A program made the translations under genes and the position numbers. From assembly GCF_003334815.1 (NCBI RefSeq), contig NZ_QOWO01000014.1: DNA of 64,000 bases; one strand, 5' to 3'. Numbering within the stretch: position 1 is the stretch's first letter; each line of letters begins with the position of its first letter. Below are positions 4,856 through 56,864 of the stretch, one piece after another. This stretch comes from Escherichia coli. GTDB taxonomy: Bacteria; Pseudomonadota; Gammaproteobacteria; Enterobacterales; Enterobacteriaceae. A model generated the notes under the pieces. It was not told where the DNA came from. It did not search any database and saw only the letters and a list, made by a program, of their open reading frames with translations.

Positions 4856-5224
4856 AATAAAAAAAGGGAGCACTGTATTCACAGCGCTCCCGGTTCGTTT
4901 CGCAGCATTCCAGCTACTTTTGTTGCTCCCTGCTCATCCTTGACAACTTTTCCTCTGGCCTTGCGGCCAATCGTTCATCCTGAACTATTGCTTCCTGCTC
5001 ACACCACCCCGATGTGATACTTCATCCTGAAGTGTCCCTGGCCTTCCTGACCCACCGAATCATCCTGACCGGTTCTCATTCTCCATCCTGGAGGTGTCCT
5101 TTAACGCGTCCTGCGTCATCCTCTTCGCTTCATCCAGAAGCCTTTCCCTGAAACACCATCCTGGTGTGTCCTGCAGAAGTGTCATCATCCTGATGTTCAC
5201 TTCGTTGTCTGACTCCCTGTCGAC
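4856..5224 (-). ncRNA. csrB: CsrB small RNA (CsrA-sequestering); ends approximate to within about 5 nt
   Basis: Minus strand carries about 18 repeats of CAGGA(U/A)G / AGGA motifs (seen as catcctg / tcctg on plus strand 4930..5220) and ends in a GC hairpin plus U-run (plus 4857..4889); no credible ORF. Confidence 0.85.
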
Positions 5225-23395: not shown

Positions 23396-23601
23396 ACTTC
23401 CTGAGCCGGAACGAAAAGTTTTATCGGAATGCGTGTTCTGGTGAACTTTTGGCTTACGGTTGTGATGTTGTGTTGTTGTGTTTGCAATTGGTCTGCGATT
23501 CAGACCATGGTAGCAAAGCTACCTTTTTTCACTTCCTGTACATTTACCCTGTCTGTCCATAGTGATTAATGTAGCACCGCCTAATTGCGGTGCTTTTTTT
23601 T
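23396..23601 (+). ncRNA. gcvB: GcvB small RNA; ends approximate
   Basis: Starts ACTTCCTGAGCCGGAACGAAAAG, contains the G/U-rich seed tgtgatgttgtgttgttgtgtttg (23461..23484) and ends in hairpin gcaccgcctaattgcggtgc plus T8; divergent from gcvA as in the known arrangement. Confidence 0.85.
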
Positions 23602-26595: not shown

Positions 26596-26693
26596 GCCTG
26601 ATGCGCTACGCTTATCAGGCCTACATAACTCCTGCAATATTTTGGATTTGCATGATTTGTAGGCCGGATAAGGCGTTCACGCCGCATCCGGCA
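26596..26693. repeat. Pair of REP elements (BIME-like) in the tcdA-mltA gap
   Basis: gcctgatgcgctacgcttatcaggcctac (26596..26624) and gtaggccggataaggcgttcacgccgcatccggca (26659..26693), classic REP palindromes in opposite orientation. Confidence 0.7.
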
Positions 26694-28085: not shown

Positions 28086-28162
<77 letters not shown>

Positions 28163-39538: not shown

Positions 39539-42500
39539 TCATGACTGATTAAAGCGAAACAGCGGTAACAGGAAACGTTGCGACTGTTCAACGATGGCCT
39601 CCATTGTCTCTGGTGTTAATTGCCGCCAGAGCCTTTGATACCAGATATCATCACCTTCGCCACGCACCATCATGTTGCCTTCGTAAGCCTGAAGGAATTT
39701 CGTACGGGCTTTTTGCAACGTGGAATCGTCATCCAGCATGGCATCGTTTTGCGCGTCATAACAGGTTTTTAGCCACGCGCCGCCACTTTCAGGTAACACC
39801 AGCAATGGCGCGGACATTCCTTCACGATACCCCTCAATCAGTTGTGAGAGGTAATGCAAAGCCTGTTCGGCTGCAAGCGGCGGAAAACGCCACTCGCCGT
39901 CTTTGCGTAGAAAAAGGCGACTTTCACCATTACCACCGCTGGCACAGTAGACAAGGTGTTCCAGCCAAAGTTGCATTCCCTGGGCCACACTTAATAAAGA
40001 GGGACGCCAGCGCAACAGGCCATCCGGCTGCACCTGCGGCAACCAGCCAGTTATCTGCACACCGTTGCAGGCGAGATCAATTTCCATACTCTGCCCCGGC
40101 TGGCGACAGGCAATGACTCTGTCGGCAAGCTGCTGCATCTCCTGGCACTGTGTTTCCCAGAAAATTTCACCAAAAGCGCCATACGGTAAATCCCCTGCCG
40201 CTCGGAAGCGGCGGAACAAGCGTTCGGCATCATCCTGCTCAACCAGTGCATTCAATAACTGCTGATTGATTTGATAACGGCTAAGTCCTTCCAGAATAAA
40301 TGGCTCGGTGTCGGGGATTTCGCTGTCTTCAGTACGGAAGTTCACCTGCAAACGCATCTGGAAAAATGCCCGCACCGGATGTGCCCAGAATCGTTGTAGC
40401 GTTTCCAGCGGCACGGTTTCCGGTAAGGTAAACGGCAGCGGCTGAACAAATTCAGAATGTGCTTTACCAGCCTGGCTGGCCGCAGGTAGCCATTCACGAG
40501 CATAGCTTTGTCGTTCGCCTGGCTGGTAGTTTTGTGGATCAAACGGCATCCGGGTATGGAGGCAAGTAAGATGCGCTTTTACCCTTGCCTCGCTTTCATC
40601 ACAGTTGAGCGCTTCATCGCCCGGTAGATAATGACTTTGCCCGATGTAGTCGATCAGTTCCTGCACCAGTACCGACGGGAAACGCTCACTGTTATCCTGA
40701 ATGGAACGACCGATATAGCTGATATAGAGTTTTTGCTGCGCGGAAATTAACGCTTCCAGGAACAGATAGCGGTCGTCATCGCGACGGCTACGGTCGCCAC
40801 GCTTCGGTTTCTGGCTCATCAGGTCAAAGCCCAATGGCGCAAGCTGACGTGGATAAACGCCGTCGTTCATTCCCAGCAGGCAAACCACTTTGAACGGAAT
40901 TGAACGCATTGGCATCAGAGTACAAATGTTAACCGGTCCGGCGAGAAAACGCTGGCTGATACGTTCTTGATCCAGACGCTGTGCCAGTTCATCACGCAAT
41001 AGTGACAGCGGCACCGCGTCGCCATACTGCGCACCTAAACCTTCGGCGATAATCGCCTGCCATTGTTGTTCGATCAGCGTCATCGCCGCTTCGGTTTCCG
41101 CATCCGGCAGGAAGAAGGCGTTGAGCATATCGCGACAAACCGGCAACCACTCTTCCAGCGGACGCTCCTGTGCCAGCCCGCGACGCCAGATGTTTAGCTG
41201 CATTAGCAGTGAAGCCAGATGCCCCACCAGTTCTGCAATTAAGCCGCTCGATTCATCATAAGGTAGAACCGATTGCCACTCGCCCTGCGCGCTCTCCATC
41301 GCGTAGCCCAACAACATACGCGTCAGGCCAAATCGCCAGGTGTGTTGTCCGGTGGCGGGGAGTTCCAGCTCGCGAACGTTGTCGTCATCTATGCCCCAAC
41401 GAATGCCGGATTCGTTGACCCACTGGCGTAAATAACGCAGCCCTTCTTCGGTGATGTCAAACCGCGCCGCCAGCACCGGCACATCCAGCAACGCCAGCAC
41501 ATCCTCTGACACAAAACGACTGTCAGGCAGTGATAACAGGCTGATAAACGCTTCCAGTACCGGATGTGACTGCCGCGCACGACGGTCGGAAATGGCGTAA
41601 GGTAGGTAACGATCCGCAGGTGCGCTACCAAACACAGCCTGAATAAACGGACTGTAGCTGTCGATATCAGCCACCATCACGATGATGTCGCGCGGAGTAA
41701 GTGTCGGGTCTTCCTCCAGCATCGCCAGCAGGCGATCGTGTAAAACTTCAACTTCACGCTGCGGGCTATGGCAAACGTGGAAGGTGATACTGCTATCCAG
41801 TGGATCAAGCGGGCGTTTGTTATCGCTACGGGAAAACTCTTCGATGTTCACACCAGCAACGGCGCGGTTTTCCAGTTCCAGAATGTCAGACTGAATGTTA
41901 TGCAGCAGGTTATCTGGCGTGACATCGACAAAGGCGTCCAGCTCCTGGCTGCTCTCCAGGTCAGAAAGGAGATAAATGTAGTCGCGCCCAAGCTTACCCC
42001 ATGAAGCCAGCAGCGGGTTGCCGACATCCTGTTCACCATCGCTGTTAAAGAGCTGCCCGGCATTTTCGCTATCACGAAATAGCGGCAATTCGCGATCTTC
42101 AAAACTGTGTCGACGCTGACGGGTCAGCAGTTTCGCCAGATAAGCAGGATCTTTAATATCGCCCCAGTAATAACGGCAGGGGTTGGTAAACAGGAGATGG
42201 ATTTCAATATGTTTACCCAGCGCCTGTAGCGCCTGGAGATAAACAGGCGGTAACGCGGAAATACCGCATATAAAGACGCGCGAAGGTAACCCCGGCGGGC
42301 AGGTCGTCGCGGACTCCAGCGTTTCGATAAAGCGCTGATAGAGATTGGCGCGGTGCCAGCGCGGTTGCCCGAGTTGATGGGTATATTCCACCAGCGCCTT
42401 CCACAACGGGGCTTGCCAGGCCTGTGCTTCTCCCAGCCCTTCAACCAAATGTCCTGTTTCCCACTGTGCCAGCCAGTCCGGACGATAGACCAGATACTGG

Positions 42501-42907
42501 TCAAACAGGTCCGCCGCTTTTGAGGAAAGCTGGAACAGTTTTCGCTTGTCGCTATCGTCAGTCAGATAATGCCGCAACAGGGTAAAGTCTTCGCGCTCCA
42601 GCAATTGCGGCAGCAGAGTCATCAGTTTCCAGCTCATGCTCTGTTTGTTAAAGGCGCTCTCTTTGGGGATTTCCGGTAACACCCGGACGAACATATCCCA
42701 GATAAAGCTCGCTGGCAGCGGAAAATCAATGTTTGCCGCAATACCAAACTTTTGCGACAGGGTCATTTGCAGCCACTGTGCCATACCGGTACTTTGCACC
42801 AGAATCATCTCTGGTTCGAAAGGATCGTCCAGCCGTTCGCGTTCGACAATAAACTCCATCAACGCTTCCAGCACGTCCAGACGATTGGAATGGTAGACCC
42901 TTAACAT
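39539..42907 (-). CDS. recC: RecBCD enzyme subunit RecC
   Basis: 1122-aa ORF MLRVYHSNRLDVLEALMEFIVERERLDDPFEPEMILVQSTGMAQWLQ... Confidence 0.93.
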   Translation of the reverse strand: MLRVYHSNRLDVLEALMEFIVERERLDDPFEPEMILVQSTGMAQWLQMTLSQKFGIAANIDFPLPASFIWDMFVRVLPEIPKESAFNKQSMSWKLMTLLPQLLEREDFTLLRHYLTDDSDKRKLFQLSSKAADLFDQYLVYRPDWLAQWETGHLVEGLGEAQAWQAPLWKALVEYTHQLGQPRWHRANLYQRFIETLESATTCPPGLPSRVFICGISALPPVYLQALQALGKHIEIHLLFTNPCRYYWGDIKDPAYLAKLLTRQRRHSFEDRELPLFRDSENAGQLFNSDGEQDVGNPLLASWGKLGRDYIYLLSDLESSQELDAFVDVTPDNLLHNIQSDILELENRAVAGVNIEEFSRSDNKRPLDPLDSSITFHVCHSPQREVEVLHDRLLAMLEEDPTLTPRDIIVMVADIDSYSPFIQAVFGSAPADRYLPYAISDRRARQSHPVLEAFISLLSLPDSRFVSEDVLALLDVPVLAARFDITEEGLRYLRQWVNESGIRWGIDDDNVRELELPATGQHTWRFGLTRMLLGYAMESAQGEWQSVLPYDESSGLIAELVGHLASLLMQLNIWRRGLAQERPLEEWLPVCRDMLNAFFLPDAETEAAMTLIEQQWQAIIAEGLGAQYGDAVPLSLLRDELAQRLDQERISQRFLAGPVNICTLMPMRSIPFKVVCLLGMNDGVYPRQLAPLGFDLMSQKPKRGDRSRRDDDRYLFLEALISAQQKLYISYIGRSIQDNSERFPSVLVQELIDYIGQSHYLPGDEALNCDESEARVKAHLTCLHTRMPFDPQNYQPGERQSYAREWLPAASQAGKAHSEFVQPLPFTLPETVPLETLQRFWAHPVRAFFQMRLQVNFRTEDSEIPDTEPFILEGLSRYQINQQLLNALVEQDDAERLFRRFRAAGDLPYGAFGEIFWETQCQEMQQLADRVIACRQPGQSMEIDLACNGVQITGWLPQVQPDGLLRWRPSLLSVAQGMQLWLEHLVYCASGGNGESRLFLRKDGEWRFPPLAAEQALHYLSQLIEGYREGMSAPLLVLPESGGAWLKTCYDAQNDAMLDDDSTLQKARTKFLQAYEGNMMVRGEGDDIWYQRLWRQLTPETMEAIVEQSQRFLLPLFRFNQS

Positions 42908-42919
42908 AGCGGCTCCTGA

Positions 42920-43243
42920 CTACTGACGATTCGGGCAATGCAGGCGGGTCATCTCGCCTTCTCTGCCCCCGGGTGAAACTAGCGTAACGCTGATGCTGAC
43001 ACATCCCGCCTGCGATGTCTGCATTCGGTTGACCTGCCAGTTGGCAGGTGGCGAAATCGCGCGCAGTTGCGTTTGCTGCCAGCCATGCCGCCAGAGCTGT
43101 TGGTACTGGTTTCTGCTGGCAAGACTGTTCATTAATGTTCGCTGGAAACCCGATAACGCAGTGACAATCATCACCATCAACACCATCGCCAACATTACCT
43201 CCGGCAGGCTAAAGCCTTGTTGATTCTTCAGGGAAGCTGACAT
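42920..43243 (-). CDS. ppdC: Prepilin peptidase-dependent protein C (pseudopilin-like)
   Basis: [26 protein letters not shown], class III prepilin-type N-terminus; ATG 43243 with GAGAGG SD. Confidence 0.83.
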
Positions 43244-43635
43244 AACGCCCTCTCTTTCAGCGGACAAAAATCGCTCCAGCCGCGTGGCGAAAAAACAATG
43301 TTTCCATCAATGACTTCGCCTGTTCGCCACAACGAAACGCCTTCATAACCGGCAATCAATAAGGCTTCATTATCTGCCAGTAAACGCAAACAAACCTGGG
43401 CATCGGTTTCAGCGTACTGCGAGCACTGAACTGCTGGCTGCGTCTGCCAGGAGTGCATTTTTCCCCACGCCAGCGCCGACTGAACGATGGCCTGGCGGCG
43501 CAATGACTGACTTTCCATGCTCACGCGAGAGGCAAAACTGCGATCCTGTTGGCTCATTCCTTGTAATAGCAAACTACCCAAAACCAGCAGCATCAGGACC
43601 AGAGCCAGTGACGAAACACCCTTTTCGCGGTTCAC
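43228..43635 (-). CDS. ygdB: DUF2509 protein in the pseudopilin cluster
   Basis: 135-aa [29 protein letters not shown]; overlaps ppdC and ppdB. Confidence 0.82.
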
Positions 43636-44195
43636 AGGTTGAATCCTGTCACGCTATAGCTGGCATTCACCACGGTTTGCGGTTCAGACTTACTGGCAGC
43701 ACGCATATTAACCGTCAACACCGGCGAGAAGCCGCTGACATCCTGACGTACGACCTGAAAAGTGTCGATAATGATGGCATCCGGATTAGTGACTTTATCC
43801 CAGCCCTTACCTTCACAGGATGTCGCACCGCGTAGCGTTTCCAGCACATGCTCCTTCAGACGAAATCCAATCTGGTCGGACTCTTTTACCGGTTCGCGAT
43901 CCCAGATACCGTTACTGTTCGCATCCCACTGCACAATGACACAGTCACCCTGTCCGACAATTTCCAGCCCTTCGCCGGTACAGATGCCATGACAATAACC
44001 CGCCCTCTGGAGATGCTTCGCGACGGTAAATACCCGCAGCCAGATTTCATCTTCCAGCGCCAGCTTACGGGTGCTCGTTAAACTTTCACGCTGTAACGCA
44101 GGCAGAAAGCGTGCCGCCCCCAGCAACAATACGCTACTGATCGCCATAGCAATCAACACTTCCAGCAGAGAAAAACCTTGCTCTTTTACAGGCAT
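43632..44195 (-). CDS. ppdB: Prepilin peptidase-dependent protein B (pseudopilin-like)
   Basis: [30 protein letters not shown]; start ATG 44195; the ORF track 267-aa version is an 80-codon upstream extension overlapping ppdA. Confidence 0.83.
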
Positions 44196-44656
44196 CCTTC
44201 TGTTTCTCCTTGCTGACAAAGCCGGAGTCTTCCCCACGGCGAAACCACCAGCCACCACTCGCCCGTTGAGTTTTTGAAGCGAATATGCCCGGCCCATGCG
44301 GTATTGCGCAGGCCAAAGAAAGCAAGCGAAGGTGTCAGGTCGCTCATTTCGACTTCGGGCCAGCGTGGCACAAAGACCAATGGTGAACTGCCATGACAGG
44401 TATTGGCCCCAGCAGCGGAACTCACAAGGCACCATAACGTCCCCTCCCTGATAACGCTGATACTGTGGTCGCGGTTATGCCAGTTGGCATCTTCACGTAA
44501 ATAGAGCAAATAGTCCCGCGCCTGGCTGGCGGTTTGCCATAGCCGTTGCGACTGCTGCCAGTATTGCCAGCCATAGAGTCCACTTGCGCTTAGCATGACC
44601 AAAATCAGCATCGCGACCAGCGTTTCAATCAGCGTATAACCACGTTGTGTTTTCAT
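44186..44656 (-). CDS. ppdA: Prepilin peptidase-dependent protein A (pseudopilin-like)
   Basis: 156-aa [33 protein letters not shown], prepilin-type N-terminus. Confidence 0.87.
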
Positions 44657-44791
44657 GCCGGCAGTATGGAGCGAGGAGAAAAAAAGACGAGGGCCAGTTT
44701 CTATTTCTTCGGCGCATCTTCCGGACTATTTACGCCGTTGCAGGACGTTGCAAAATTTCGGGAAGGCGTCTCGAAGAATTTAACGGAGGGT

Positions 44792-44818
44792 AAAAAAACC
44801 GACGCACACTGGCGTCGG
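44792..44818 (-). terminator. Rho-independent terminator downstream of thyA
   Basis: Minus strand reads agccgacgc-cagtgt-gcgtcgg followed by TTTTTTT (plus-strand A-run 44792..44798). Confidence 0.65.
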
Positions 44819-44839
44819 CTCTGGCAGGATGTTTCGTAA

Positions 44840-45634
44840 TTAGATAGCCACCGGCGCTTTAATGCCCGGATGCGGATCGTAGCCTTCAATCTCAAAGTCT
44901 TCGAAACGGTAGTCGAAGATGGATTCGGGTTTACGTTTGATAATCAACTTCGGCAGCGGACGCGGTTCGCGGCTTAATTGCAGATGAGTTTGATCCATAT
45001 GGTTGCTGTACAGATGCGTGTCGCCACCGGTCCAGACAAAATCACCCACTTCCAGATCGCACTGCTGCGCCATCATATGCACCAATAACGCGTAGCTGGC
45101 AATGTTGAACGGCAGGCCGAGGAAGACGTCACAGGAGCGCTGATAAAGCTGGCAAGAGAGTTTGCCGTCTGCCACATAGAACTGGAAGAATGCATGGCAC
45201 GGTGCCAGCGCCATTTTATCCAGTTCGCCTACGTTCCACGCTGAAACAATAATGCGGCGCGAATCCGGGTCGTTTTTCAGCTGGTTCAGTACCGTAGTGA
45301 TCTGGTCAATATGACGACCATCTGGCGTTGGCCAGGCGCGCCACTGTTTACCATACACTGGCCCGAGGTCGCCGTTTTCATCGGCCCATTCGTCCCAGAT
45401 GGTGACATTGTTTTCGTGTAGATAAGCAATGTTAGTGTCGCCCTGCAGAAACCACAGCAGTTCATGGATGATGGAACGCAGGTGGCAACGTTTAGTTGTC
45501 ACCAGCGGGAATCCATCTTGCAGGTTAAAACGCATCTGATGACCAAAAATGGAAAGCGTTCCGGTTCCGGTACGGTCGTTTTTCTGTGTGCCTTCGTCGA
45601 GCACTTTTTGCATCAGTTCTAAATACTGTTTCAT
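44840..45634 (-). CDS. thyA: Thymidylate synthase
   Basis: 264-aa [39 protein letters not shown]... with active-site region [12 protein letters not shown]. Confidence 0.95.
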
Positions 45635-56580: not shown

Positions 56581-56668
56581 AAAAAAAACCTGCGCATCCG
56601 CGCAGGTTGGTGCAAGAGACAGGGTACGAAGAGCGTACCGAATAATCTCACCAATCAATACCTCTGGG
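56581..56668 (-). ncRNA. omrA: OmrA small RNA (88 nt)
   Basis: Minus strand reads CCCAGAGGTATTGATTGGTGAGATTATTCGGTACGCTCTTCGTACCCTGTCTCTTGCACCAACCTGCGCGGATGCGCAGGTTTTTTTT. Confidence 0.87.
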
Positions 56669-56782: not shown

Positions 56783-56864
56783 AAAAAAAACCTGCGCATC
56801 TGCGCAGGCTGGTGTAATTCATGTGCTCAACCCGAAGTTGACTTCACCTATCAATACCTCTGGG
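56783..56864 (-). ncRNA. omrB: OmrB small RNA (82 nt)
   Basis: Minus strand reads CCCAGAGGTATTGATAGGTGAAGTCAACTTCGGGTTGAGCACATGAATTACACCAGCCTGCGCAGATGCGCAGGTTTTTTTT; shares 5' and 3' ends with omrA. Confidence 0.87.

Follow-up and report, generated by a model that had tools for sequence, protein, structure and literature searches.

The ppdA-ppdB-ygdB-ppdC cluster of Escherichia coli occupies the minus strand directly upstream of recC, which raises the question of what four small pilin-like genes do beside a recombination gene and whether recC depends on their transcription. We analyzed the cluster within a 64,000-nucleotide stretch of E. coli DNA, referred to here as the window. The best explanation, to which we assign an overall probability of roughly 0.88 with its transcription scheme included, is that the four genes supply the type IVa "competence" pilus of E. 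coli with its core minor pilins.

The ppdA-ppdB-ygdB-ppdC locus

The initial annotation had reported an overlapping, pseudopilin-like group of four genes in front of recC, and both sequence and annotation bear out its coordinates, overlaps and gene names. The locus reads as follows (a slash marks the predicted prepilin cleavage position).

42920-44656, minus strand: minor-pilin cluster ppdA-ppdB-ygdB-ppdC, directly upstream of recC
44186..44656, minus strand: ppdA, 156 aa; minor pilin with class III signal MKTQRG/YTLIE; MG1655 b2826
43632..44195, minus strand: ppdB, 187 aa, ATG at 44195; minor pilin with signal MPVKEQG/FSLLE and predicted GspJ/PilW-like fold
43228..43635, minus strand: ygdB, 135 aa, GTG start, DUF2509; non-canonical minor pilin
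42920..43243, minus strand: ppdC, 107 aa, ATG at 43243; minor pilin, signal ending in /FSLPE
39539..42907, minus strand: recC, 1122 aa; downstream gene of the transcription unit, from open reading frame and annotation

Annotation of the window was taken from identical E. coli records covering 1-22800 and about 22700-64000. The four genes are b2823-b2826 in MG1655, and every one of 5426 complete E. coli genomes has all of them annotated. A mechanical list of open reading frames extends ppdB (to 267 aa) and ppdC (to 115 aa, from a TTG start); the shorter starts used here agree with the RefSeq and MG1655 annotation and are kept in orthologues. Inspection of the sequence confirmed overlaps of 10 bp (44186-44195), 4 bp (43632-43635) and 16 bp (43228-43243), at the positions first reported, and the overlapping stops and starts would couple translation of the four pilin genes. 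The ppdC stop codon (TAG, 42922-42920) and the recC ATG (42907-42905) are indeed close, separated by 12 intergenic nt; the previously given distance of 13 bp is the coordinate difference. The operon is already known from E. coli K-12, where it has been named, annotated and studied experimentally, and the observation is real and ordinary.

Three canonical prepilins and a non-canonical fourth

In a class III prepilin signal, a short basic leader has Gly as its last residue, the next position (+1) is Phe, Tyr or Met, and position +5 is Glu. Such signals are present in PpdA (G6/Y..E11), PpdB (G7/F..E12) and PpdC (G10/F..E15), and G7, F8 and E12 of PpdB are invariant among 69 orthologues. Searches with hidden Markov models of pilin families, which had been proposed as a check, placed all three proteins above cut-off. 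The prepilin cleavage/methylation motif TIGR02532 (curated cut-off, 16.3 bits) scored 24.3 bits in PpdA, 29.5 in PpdB and 24.5 in PpdC, and Pfam N_methyl matched with E = 5e-7, 1e-8 and 2e-6, respectively; because of these scores and matches, the motifs are above chance. The NCBIfam equivalog scores of the cluster proteins far exceed their cut-offs (PRK10506 for PpdA, 249.6 bits against a cut-off of 158; PRK10557 for PpdB, 326 bits; PRK10332 for PpdC, 217 bits), and PpdC also matches Pfam T2SSppdC. To judge from the gene names ("prepilin peptidase dependent") and the literature, a prepilin peptidase of the PilD/GspO family would cleave and N-methylate the products. PpdA, PpdB and PpdC would be made as prepilins, cut by the peptidase after the conserved Gly and anchored in the inner membrane through the hydrophobic helix at their N-terminus.

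YgdB departs from this scheme: its Gly6 is invariant, the +1 residue is Val, Ala11 replaces Glu at +5, and none of the motif models matches. Absence of Glu at +5 is a trait of GspK-type tip subunits. YgdB does have a hydrophobic helix and a predicted pilin fold, and it matches GspK and GspI. We conclude that YgdB, as judged from its cleavage-site Gly and its model, is a fourth, non-canonical pilin. The initial count of three prepilin-type products holds for the motif, and pilin-like character extends to all four. The locus contains a quartet of small, overlapping pilin genes with one product, YgdB, lacking Glu5.

The AF2 model of PpdB (pLDDT 89.5) had as top Foldseek match in the PDB EpsJ, a GspJ (2ret_H, probability 0.99, E = 0.01), and by sequence PpdB weakly matched the Thermus pilin TTHA1219. 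The pilin fold, a hydrophobic N-terminal alpha-helix of about 50 residues on an antiparallel beta-sheet, was found. A sequence search of the PDB gave no match for PpdA, YgdB or PpdC, and Foldseek returned nothing significant in the PDB for YgdB. Lack of homology to pseudopilins had been named as a ground for rejecting the assignment; by TIGR02532, Pfam and the EpsJ match, the genes are of pilin or pseudopilin type.

The ppdA promoter region

Transcription of the cluster would start in the thyA-ppdA spacer, downstream of the strong thyA terminator. Comparison across loci outlined these features.

44792..44822, minus strand: intrinsic terminator of thyA, made up of an 11-bp hairpin and a trailing U run, predicted to isolate the ppdA promoter from thyA
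44757..44778, minus strand: distal CRP-S-like 22-mer, TTCTTCGAGACGCCTTCCCGAA, a putative site
44738..44752, minus strand: direct repeat TGCAA-N5-TGCAA, which follows the distal site at 17-18 nt throughout
44705..44726, minus strand: proximal CRP-S-like 22-mer; the E. coli version (GTCCGGAAGATGCGCCGAAGAA) is degenerate, that of other genera TTCTTCGTAACGCGCCGAATAA-like
44663..44668, minus strand: CATACT, an instance of the conserved hexamer CAyACT, located 6 nt upstream of the ppdA start codon

The terminator folds with -16.6 kcal/mol (z = -2.5) and is conserved with compensatory changes in 70 loci. CRP-S sites are of the type TGCGA-N6-TCGCA with C6 and G17. Allowing up to two mismatches, this pattern was absent from the thyA-ppdA spacer and occurred 33 times in the window, with 45 occurrences expected by chance; the best core match upstream of E. 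coli ppdA agrees at 6/10 positions. Comparative footprinting took over from the exact pattern search. The distal site matches the validated CRP-S site of E. coli ppdD, TTCTTCGTAACGCCTCGCAAAT, at 15/22 positions, and its left half reads TGCGA in 14, TTCGA in 12 and TTCGG in 22 of 70 loci. The centres of the distal and proximal sites are 52 bp apart.

In the direct repeat, the first TGCAA is present in 47/70 loci and the second in 65/70, with the 5-nt spacer kept in 70/70. The ppdD promoter carries TGCAAC at the same 17-nt distance. In this rigid arrangement, a small side observation common to both promoters, TGCAA comes 17 nt after a CRP-S-like site. The repeat may act as a -35 element or a protein site. 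We rejected it as a sigma-54 -24/-12 promoter on inspection, since it lacks the GG of the -24 box and its spacing falls one base short. The hexamer nearest to ppdA reads CATACT, CACACT or CAGACT in 62/70 loci at fixed spacing, and no Shine-Dalgarno sequence precedes the ppdA ATG. We infer that CATACT may be a -10 box or mark a leaderless start of ppdA.

In published work, the cluster belongs to the Sxy/CRP-S competence regulon and is induced by Sxy, with ppdA the most strongly induced gene (PMC12616744), and the ppdA promoter has served as a CRP-S bait (bioRxiv 10.1101/284836). According to the literature, induction needs both Sxy and cAMP-CRP (PMC12616744, citing Sinha 2009 and Jaskolska 2015; bioRxiv 10.1101/284836). 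From this literature and the conserved sites, the ppdA promoter would be silent unless Sxy (TfoX) and cAMP-CRP act at CRP-S-type sites.

Predicted read-through into recC and a candidate promoter inside ppdC

The initial annotation proposed that the pilin genes are co-transcribed with recC, and named a separating terminator or an independent recC promoter as what would refute this. A scan found no terminator between ppdA and recC, and the two genes at the boundary meet in a short conserved segment.

42908..42919, minus strand: ppdC-recC junction, 12 nt with the recC Shine-Dalgarno sequence CAGGAG (42918-42913)

The junction measures 12 nt in 69/79 loci; a further 8 have 13-17 nt and 2 have 29 nt, and CAGGAG is conserved. 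Because there is no terminator and the gap is only 12 nt, a Sxy-induced transcript would have to enter recC, and read-through of the pilin transcript would be structurally unavoidable. A terminator-like hairpin inside ppdB (44158-44135) was discarded: it has only 3 G-C pairs and lies within sequence coding for the conserved hydrophobic helix, and the total of 2 such hairpins is below the 3.2 expected from shuffled sequence.

The other half of the question is whether recC has a promoter of its own. Within ppdC we found a block that is invariant across 78 Enterobacteriaceae loci, synonymous sites included.

42993..43021, minus strand: promoter-like element in ppdC, with CAGACA (43021-43016), a 17-nt spacer, TGT (43001-42999) and CAGCAT (42998-42993)

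Its mean entropy is 0.09 bit, compared with 0.98 for the cluster, and all five invariant synonymous sites outside Met and Trp codons fall in it. The layout of the block is that of a promoter (-35 box, variable 17-nt spacer, TG, -10 box), with a predicted transcription start near 42986, about 2962507 in MG1655, and a published CRISPRi guide described as targeting the "recC promoter" maps to 42965-42984, adjoining the element. By eye, the block shows neither symmetry nor a match that would suggest a LexA box or a CRP site. Over 42700-44900, a search of Rfam gave no match to an RNA family at a threshold as loose as E <= 1. The element is probably a constitutive promoter of recC, a candidate that would be a weak sigma-70 promoter written in the ppdC coding sequence. 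That a recC promoter should be embedded in ppdC is a small side observation.

We weighed this against a simple five-gene operon, in which recC has no promoter of its own, all transcription comes from the thyA-ppdA spacer and the ppdC block is an RNA processing, sRNA or protein-binding site. Such an operon would be in keeping with the missing terminator, the 12-nt gap between ppdC and recC, which is too short to hold a promoter, and the conserved junction. It also agrees with the listing of ppdAB-ygdB-ppdC-recC as one operon with alike cistron half-lives (PMC3936743), and with a simple sigma-70 scan that flagged nothing on the minus strand, the ppdC element included, each of its hexamers being weak. 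However, the pilin promoter needs Sxy and is practically inactive in normal growth, whereas RecC is constitutive (PMC6536506; PMC12616744), each cell containing about 5 molecules during ordinary growth (PMC6536506). The exact promoter layout of the invariant block and the "recC promoter" guide of an independent group speak against it too, and we consider the simple operon improbable.

Because the ppdC element is invariant at synonymous sites and the CRISPRi guide lies nearby, we conclude that expression of recC most likely takes two routes, rather than relying on the pilin promoter alone. Co-transcription with recC is supported in its positive part by the absent terminator, the conserved 12-nt junction and the operon listing, but sole dependence of recC on it probably does not hold. 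The independent recC promoter that had been named as contrary evidence probably exists, inside ppdC. It would allow RecC to be made while the pilins are silent.

The element in ppdC, apparently a recC promoter, would constrain five synonymous sites family-wide and explain why the pilin cluster and recC never separate. Three observations, the tight junction in 79/79 species, the strong Sxy-dependent upstream promoter and the synonymous-site-invariant candidate promoter in ppdC, are compatible with a further reading that we hold to be doubtful: that the linkage is functional, not historical, with a basal ppdC promoter and Sxy-induced read-through from the ppdA promoter. If so, the basal promoter would set the few RecC molecules per cell, and read-through would lift RecC while the DNA-uptake pilus is built. 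The subunit balance of RecBCD would shift, and with it the fate of incoming DNA between degradation and recombination.

The pilus system

The cluster had been called orphaned from any assembly machinery. This is correct for the window, in which no pilus ATPase, secretin, platform gene or prepilin peptidase is annotated, but not for the chromosome: ppdD-hofBC and hofMNOPQ are found elsewhere in E. coli, and the system is spread over at least three loci. The other parts of the pilus would be the major pilin PpdD, the ATPase HofB, the platform protein HofC, the alignment proteins HofMNOP and the secretin HofQ. Earlier publications have already assigned the four proteins to the PpdD/Hof type IVa pilus as its minor pilins. 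From the literature, the four minor pilins together are thought to form a complex that primes filament assembly and ends at the pilus tip. Cisneros 2012, cited in PMC5131608, reported that PpdAB-YgdB-PpdC prime the assembly of both pseudopili and pili, and the Ppd set can substitute for PulHIJK in priming assembly of PulG (PMC5131608). PpdD pili have been reconstituted from the four genes in combination with hofBC, hofMNOPQ and gspO (bioRxiv 10.1101/856302).

The four proteins could instead be spare type II secretion pseudopilins, paralogues of GspH, GspI, GspJ and GspK serving the cryptic Gsp secreton. The Pfam family name T2SSppdC, EpsJ as the best structural match of PpdB and the GspK and GspI matches of YgdB point that way, but minor subunits of type II secretion systems and type IV pili have a common fold, and structural matches cannot discriminate between them. 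Sxy co-regulates the cluster with ppdD and the hof genes, the cluster makes PpdD pili with the Hof machinery, and its genes are positional orthologues of Haemophilus comNOPQ, which is required for DNA uptake (PMC1635313; PMC12616744). We regard a role as spare pseudopilins as very unlikely.

The preferred assignment to the type IVa pilus places the cluster in the dormant DNA-uptake/type IV pilus apparatus of enterobacteria, an apparatus that bears on whether, and when, E. coli acquires DNA in nature. Piliation or natural transformation of E. coli is rare in the laboratory, and the physiological role is thinly documented. PMC12616744 and PMC3330819 describe the pilin genes as silent in the laboratory and E. 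coli as not regarded as naturally competent. In this sense of laboratory silence the genes are "cryptic", as the initial annotation put it; if decay is meant, the word does not fit the selection pattern described below.

Conservation of the cluster

The order thyA-ppdA-ppdB-ygdB-ppdC-recC is kept in 79/79 species loci. For each gene, about 70-77 distinct species sequences have an uninterrupted reading frame. The proteins evolve fast (47-77% identity, compared with 91-100% for ThyA), yet the Cys pairs and Gly6 are invariant in orthologues, as are Gly, Glu5, Cys and Trp residues. The entropy at third codon positions is 1.25-1.52 bit, versus 0.61-0.94 bit at positions 1 and 2, and by this comparison of sequences each of the four genes bears the codon-position signature of purifying selection. 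A conserved block at the 3' end of ygdB (43285-43261) was rejected as a case of synonymous-site constraint; it is explained by the invariant residues G119, W120, D122, C124 and P125.

That the genes are functionless relics, retained for the recC promoter and 5' region so that deletion would harm recC, is hardly credible: laboratory silence, the constrained element in ppdC and the fast protein evolution speak for it, but the far greater variation of third positions in all four genes, the intact frames and the invariant residues speak against it, and a nucleotide-level constraint on only 29 nt of 1.7 kb cannot explain why the other three genes are preserved.

Comparison with known systems

The closest counterpart is Haemophilus influenzae comNOPQ (pulG/HI0938-HI0941), likewise four small prepilin-type genes directly upstream of recC in the same orientation, and a member of the Sxy/CRP-S competence regulon (PMC1635313; PMC12616744). 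BLAST cannot link the two sets, the sequences being too diverged, and orthology rests on position and size (PMC1635313). The likeness is taken from the literature, and the role in DNA uptake is demonstrated for comNOPQ and weakly documented for the E. coli ppd set.

GspH-GspI-GspJ-GspK (PulHIJK, EpsHIJK) resemble the cluster in having four subunits, one of them without Glu5, and in the matches of PpdB (structurally best to EpsJ) and YgdB (to GspK and GspI). They differ in that GspK, at about 280-330 aa, includes an additional helical domain, against 135 aa for YgdB, and in that the gsp genes lie inside a complete secreton operon, whereas the ppd genes are regulated with the competence pilus. 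FimU-PilV-PilW-PilX are the core minor pilins of the type IVa pilus of Pseudomonas aeruginosa; their operon differs in also encoding PilY1 and PilE and in lacking linkage to recC. To the type IV pilus system of E. coli and EHEC (PpdD/HCP, hofBC, hofMNOPQ and gspO/pppA), finally, the ppd cluster is not an analogue: it is a member.

The four-gene cluster upstream of recC

The window spans gudD to kduI/yqeF of the Escherichia coli chromosome and differs from MG1655 at 1 base across 10 kb around recC. Directly upstream of recC lies ppdA-ppdB-ygdB-ppdC, the MG1655 genes b2826-b2823, the essentials of which are already known from databases and the literature:

44186-44656, minus strand, ppdA (b2826)
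43632-44195, minus strand, ppdB
43228-43635, minus strand, ygdB (GTG start)
42920-43243, minus strand, ppdC (b2823, last of the MG1655 set)

The starts and stops of the initial annotation matched the sequence exactly, with overlaps of 10, 4, and 16 bp between consecutive genes; the recC ATG follows at 42907, 12 nt after the ppdC stop. A 2.2-kb cluster region with at least 95% identity and the same gene names was found in 5426/5426 complete E. coli genomes. Mechanical ORFs on the minus strand were too long for both ppdB (43632-44435, 267 vs. 187 aa) and ppdC (42920-43267, 115 aa from a TTG vs. 107). Both the annotation and alignments of orthologues favour the shorter forms, in which the prepilin Gly is residue 7 of PpdB and residue 10 of PpdC.

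The cluster encodes four pilin-fold proteins

PpdA, PpdB, and PpdC scored far over the cut-offs of their own NCBIfam equivalogs, and also passed the generic prepilin cleavage/methylation model TIGR02532 (24.3, 29.5, and 24.5 bits, respectively; cut-off 16.3). Pfam N_methyl was concordant for all three, and PpdC additionally matched T2SSppdC. The best Foldseek match of the PpdB model (pLDDT 89.5) was the T2SS pseudopilin EpsJ (probability 0.99, E = 0.01), and PpdB is weakly similar in sequence to the Thermus pilin TTHA1219. For YgdB the sole family match was DUF2509. Across 72 aligned orthologues, its Gly6 and two Cys pairs are invariant, the hydrophobic segment is conserved, and Ala stands where canonical pilins carry Glu5. 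The AlphaFold model of YgdB (pLDDT 92), for which Foldseek gave no significant match, shows a 58-residue helix leading into a beta-sheet. From the profile matches, the YgdB alignment, and the predicted models we therefore conclude that all four products are pilin-fold proteins, three being canonical and YgdB lacking Glu5; the initial annotation was right that the genes are pilin-like. The correspondence of the individual proteins to GspH, I, J, and K could be only partly resolved.

PMC5131608 names the four proteins as minor pilins of the E. coli type IV pilus and, citing Cisneros 2012, recounts that in a mutant lacking functional pulHIJK they primed the Klebsiella PulG pseudopilus for assembly. 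The cluster had been described as orphaned from assembly machinery. Within the 64-kb window there is indeed no pilus ATPase, platform, or secretin gene, but the description holds only relative to that window because the machinery is located elsewhere on the chromosome, in MG1655 as ppdD-hofB-hofC (0.11 Mb) and hofMNOPQ (3.52 Mb). PpdD pili are assembled from constructs in which the four genes accompany hofB, hofC, hofMNOPQ, and gspO (bioRxiv 10.1101/856302).

The cluster is conserved and under purifying selection

Using the RecC N-terminus as query, an anchor independent of the pilin genes, and one genome per species, we collected 80 Enterobacteriaceae loci. The order thyA-ppdA-ppdB-ygdB-ppdC-recC was found in 79/79 loci having upstream DNA. 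Outside Escherichia, identity was 47-77% for the four pilins, compared with 91-100% for the flanking ThyA and 75-91% for the RecC N-terminus, showing that the pilins evolve much faster; this divergence would fit evolution driven by surface exposure or by interactions. In every cluster gene, third codon positions had a column entropy of 1.25-1.52 bit, whereas first and second positions reached just 0.61-0.94 bit, and for each gene about 70-77 distinct sequences kept an intact reading frame. Both observations show purifying selection rather than decay, and the term 'cryptic' in the initial annotation was thus overstated.

The thyA-ppdA spacer contains a terminator and a candidate promoter module

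At the 3' end of thyA (44822-44792, minus strand) a strong hairpin precedes a U run (-16.6 kcal/mol, z = -2.5). The hairpin is kept in 70 species with compensatory stem changes (CCGACGC/GCGTCGG, CCGGCGC/GCGCCGG, CCGGTGC/GCGCCGG). A simple terminator scan overlooked this intrinsic terminator, on account of which the pilin genes need their own promoter within the 183-bp spacer. Footprinting of the spacer (44657-44839, minus strand) across 70 loci revealed rigidly spaced elements, listed here with two candidate -10 boxes:

44778-44757, minus strand, distal CRP-S-like 22-mer (left half TGCGA, TTCGA, or TTCGG; right half TTCC-)
44738-44752, minus strand, direct repeat TGCAA-N5-TGCAA (5-nt spacer in 70/70 loci)
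44726-44705, minus strand, second CRP-S-like 22-mer (centre 52 bp from that of the distal 22-mer)
thyA-ppdA spacer, minus strand, CTCG block, after the second 22-mer in footprint order
exactly 6 nt upstream of the ppdA start codon, minus strand, CAyACT
44721-44716, minus strand, candidate ppdA -10 box GAAGAT (would mean a ~55-nt leader)
44668-44663, minus strand, alternative candidate ppdA -10 box CATACT, the CAyACT hexamer above (would mean a leaderless mRNA)

The distal 22-mer lies 17 nt from the second TGCAA copy in 67/70 loci, and the repeat lies 81-83 nt from the ppdA ATG in 70/70. The footprint contained no Shine-Dalgarno sequence before ppdA, for which reason the ppdA mRNA may be leaderless.

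By consensus alone the E. coli ppdA CRP-S-like site is weak (6/10 core positions matched). We compared window 44738-44778 with the MG1655 ppdD promoter (L084:3551-3752), whose validated CRP-S site, TTCTTCGTAACGCCTCGCAAAT, equals the ppdA distal site at 15/22 positions and has TGCAAC 17 nt downstream, the same spacing as from the ppdA distal site to the second TGCAA. Both promoters also carry CGGAA(T/G)(C/A)TGC about 13-14 nt further on. As far as sequence comparison goes, this shared layout suggests a promoter module common to Sxy-dependent pilus genes. The spacer layout and the likeness to ppdD support the published Sxy/CRP-S regulation of ppdA; the shared layout itself is a minor, checkable side observation.

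recC is open to read-through and probably has its own promoter

In 69/79 species ppdC and recC are separated by 12 nt, in 8 by 13-17 nt, and in the other 2 by 29 nt, and the recC Shine-Dalgarno sequence CAGGAG is conserved at the junction. A simple scan of the minus strand from ppdA to recC found neither a sigma-70-like site nor a convincing terminator. Given the tiny conserved gap and the lack of a terminator, any ppdC transcript runs on into recC, and we think that recC receives read-through when Sxy is active.

A sliding-entropy scan singled out one nearly nucleotide-invariant block in the cluster, 43009-42987 (0.09 bit vs. a mean of 0.98), 12 nt downstream of a CAGACA. Together they contain a candidate element near-invariant in 78 Enterobacteriaceae loci:

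43021-43016 (CAGACA), 17 nt, TGT, 42998-42993 (CAGCAT), minus strand, candidate recC promoter in ppdC

The first ten bases of the spacer vary freely. Over the four genes, 20/567 third-codon positions are near-invariant, 15 of these in Met or Trp codons; the remaining five, which are synonymous sites (CAG, ACA, TGT, GTC, AGC), all fall inside the ppdC block, a clustering equalled in 37/20000 label-shuffle trials. In layout the element resembles a weak sigma-70 promoter of the extended -10 type, with a predicted start near 42986. Independently, a CRISPRi study used a 'recC promoter' guide that maps to window 42965-42984. During ordinary growth a cell contains ~5 RecC molecules (PMC6536506); the Sxy-dependent pilin promoter is off under these conditions. 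The invariant layout, the guide, and RecC in ordinary growth together make it fairly probable that a separate recC promoter lies within ppdC, a minor, checkable side observation. The initial annotation had counted an independent recC promoter as refuting its co-transcription reading; the read-through part of that reading stands, but such a promoter probably exists.

Other features of the window

Known small RNAs unrelated to the pilin cluster reached Rfam gathering scores:

4856-5215, minus strand, CsrB
23396-23601, plus strand, GcvB
56581-56668 and 56783-56864, minus strand, OmrA/OmrB pair
26617-26659, minus strand, ES036 (CssrF)

The tRNA-Met array differs in copy number from that of the otherwise near-identical strain 720632: the window has a single initiator-type gene (28086-28162, plus strand), whereas three tandem copies are annotated in strain 720632 (L001 5167-5463).

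Comparison with known systems

In PMC3936743, ppdAB-ygdB-ppdC-recC serves to illustrate what a polycistronic operon is. Sxy induces the cluster, ppdA most strongly, and the recC synteny of comNOPQ and ppdAB-ygdB-ppdC across Pasteurellaceae and Enterobacteriaceae was restated in 2025 (PMC12616744). Cameron and Redfield (PMC1635313) regarded the cluster as orthologous to H. influenzae pulG-HI0941 (comNOPQ) because these genes, like the E. coli cluster, adjoin recC.
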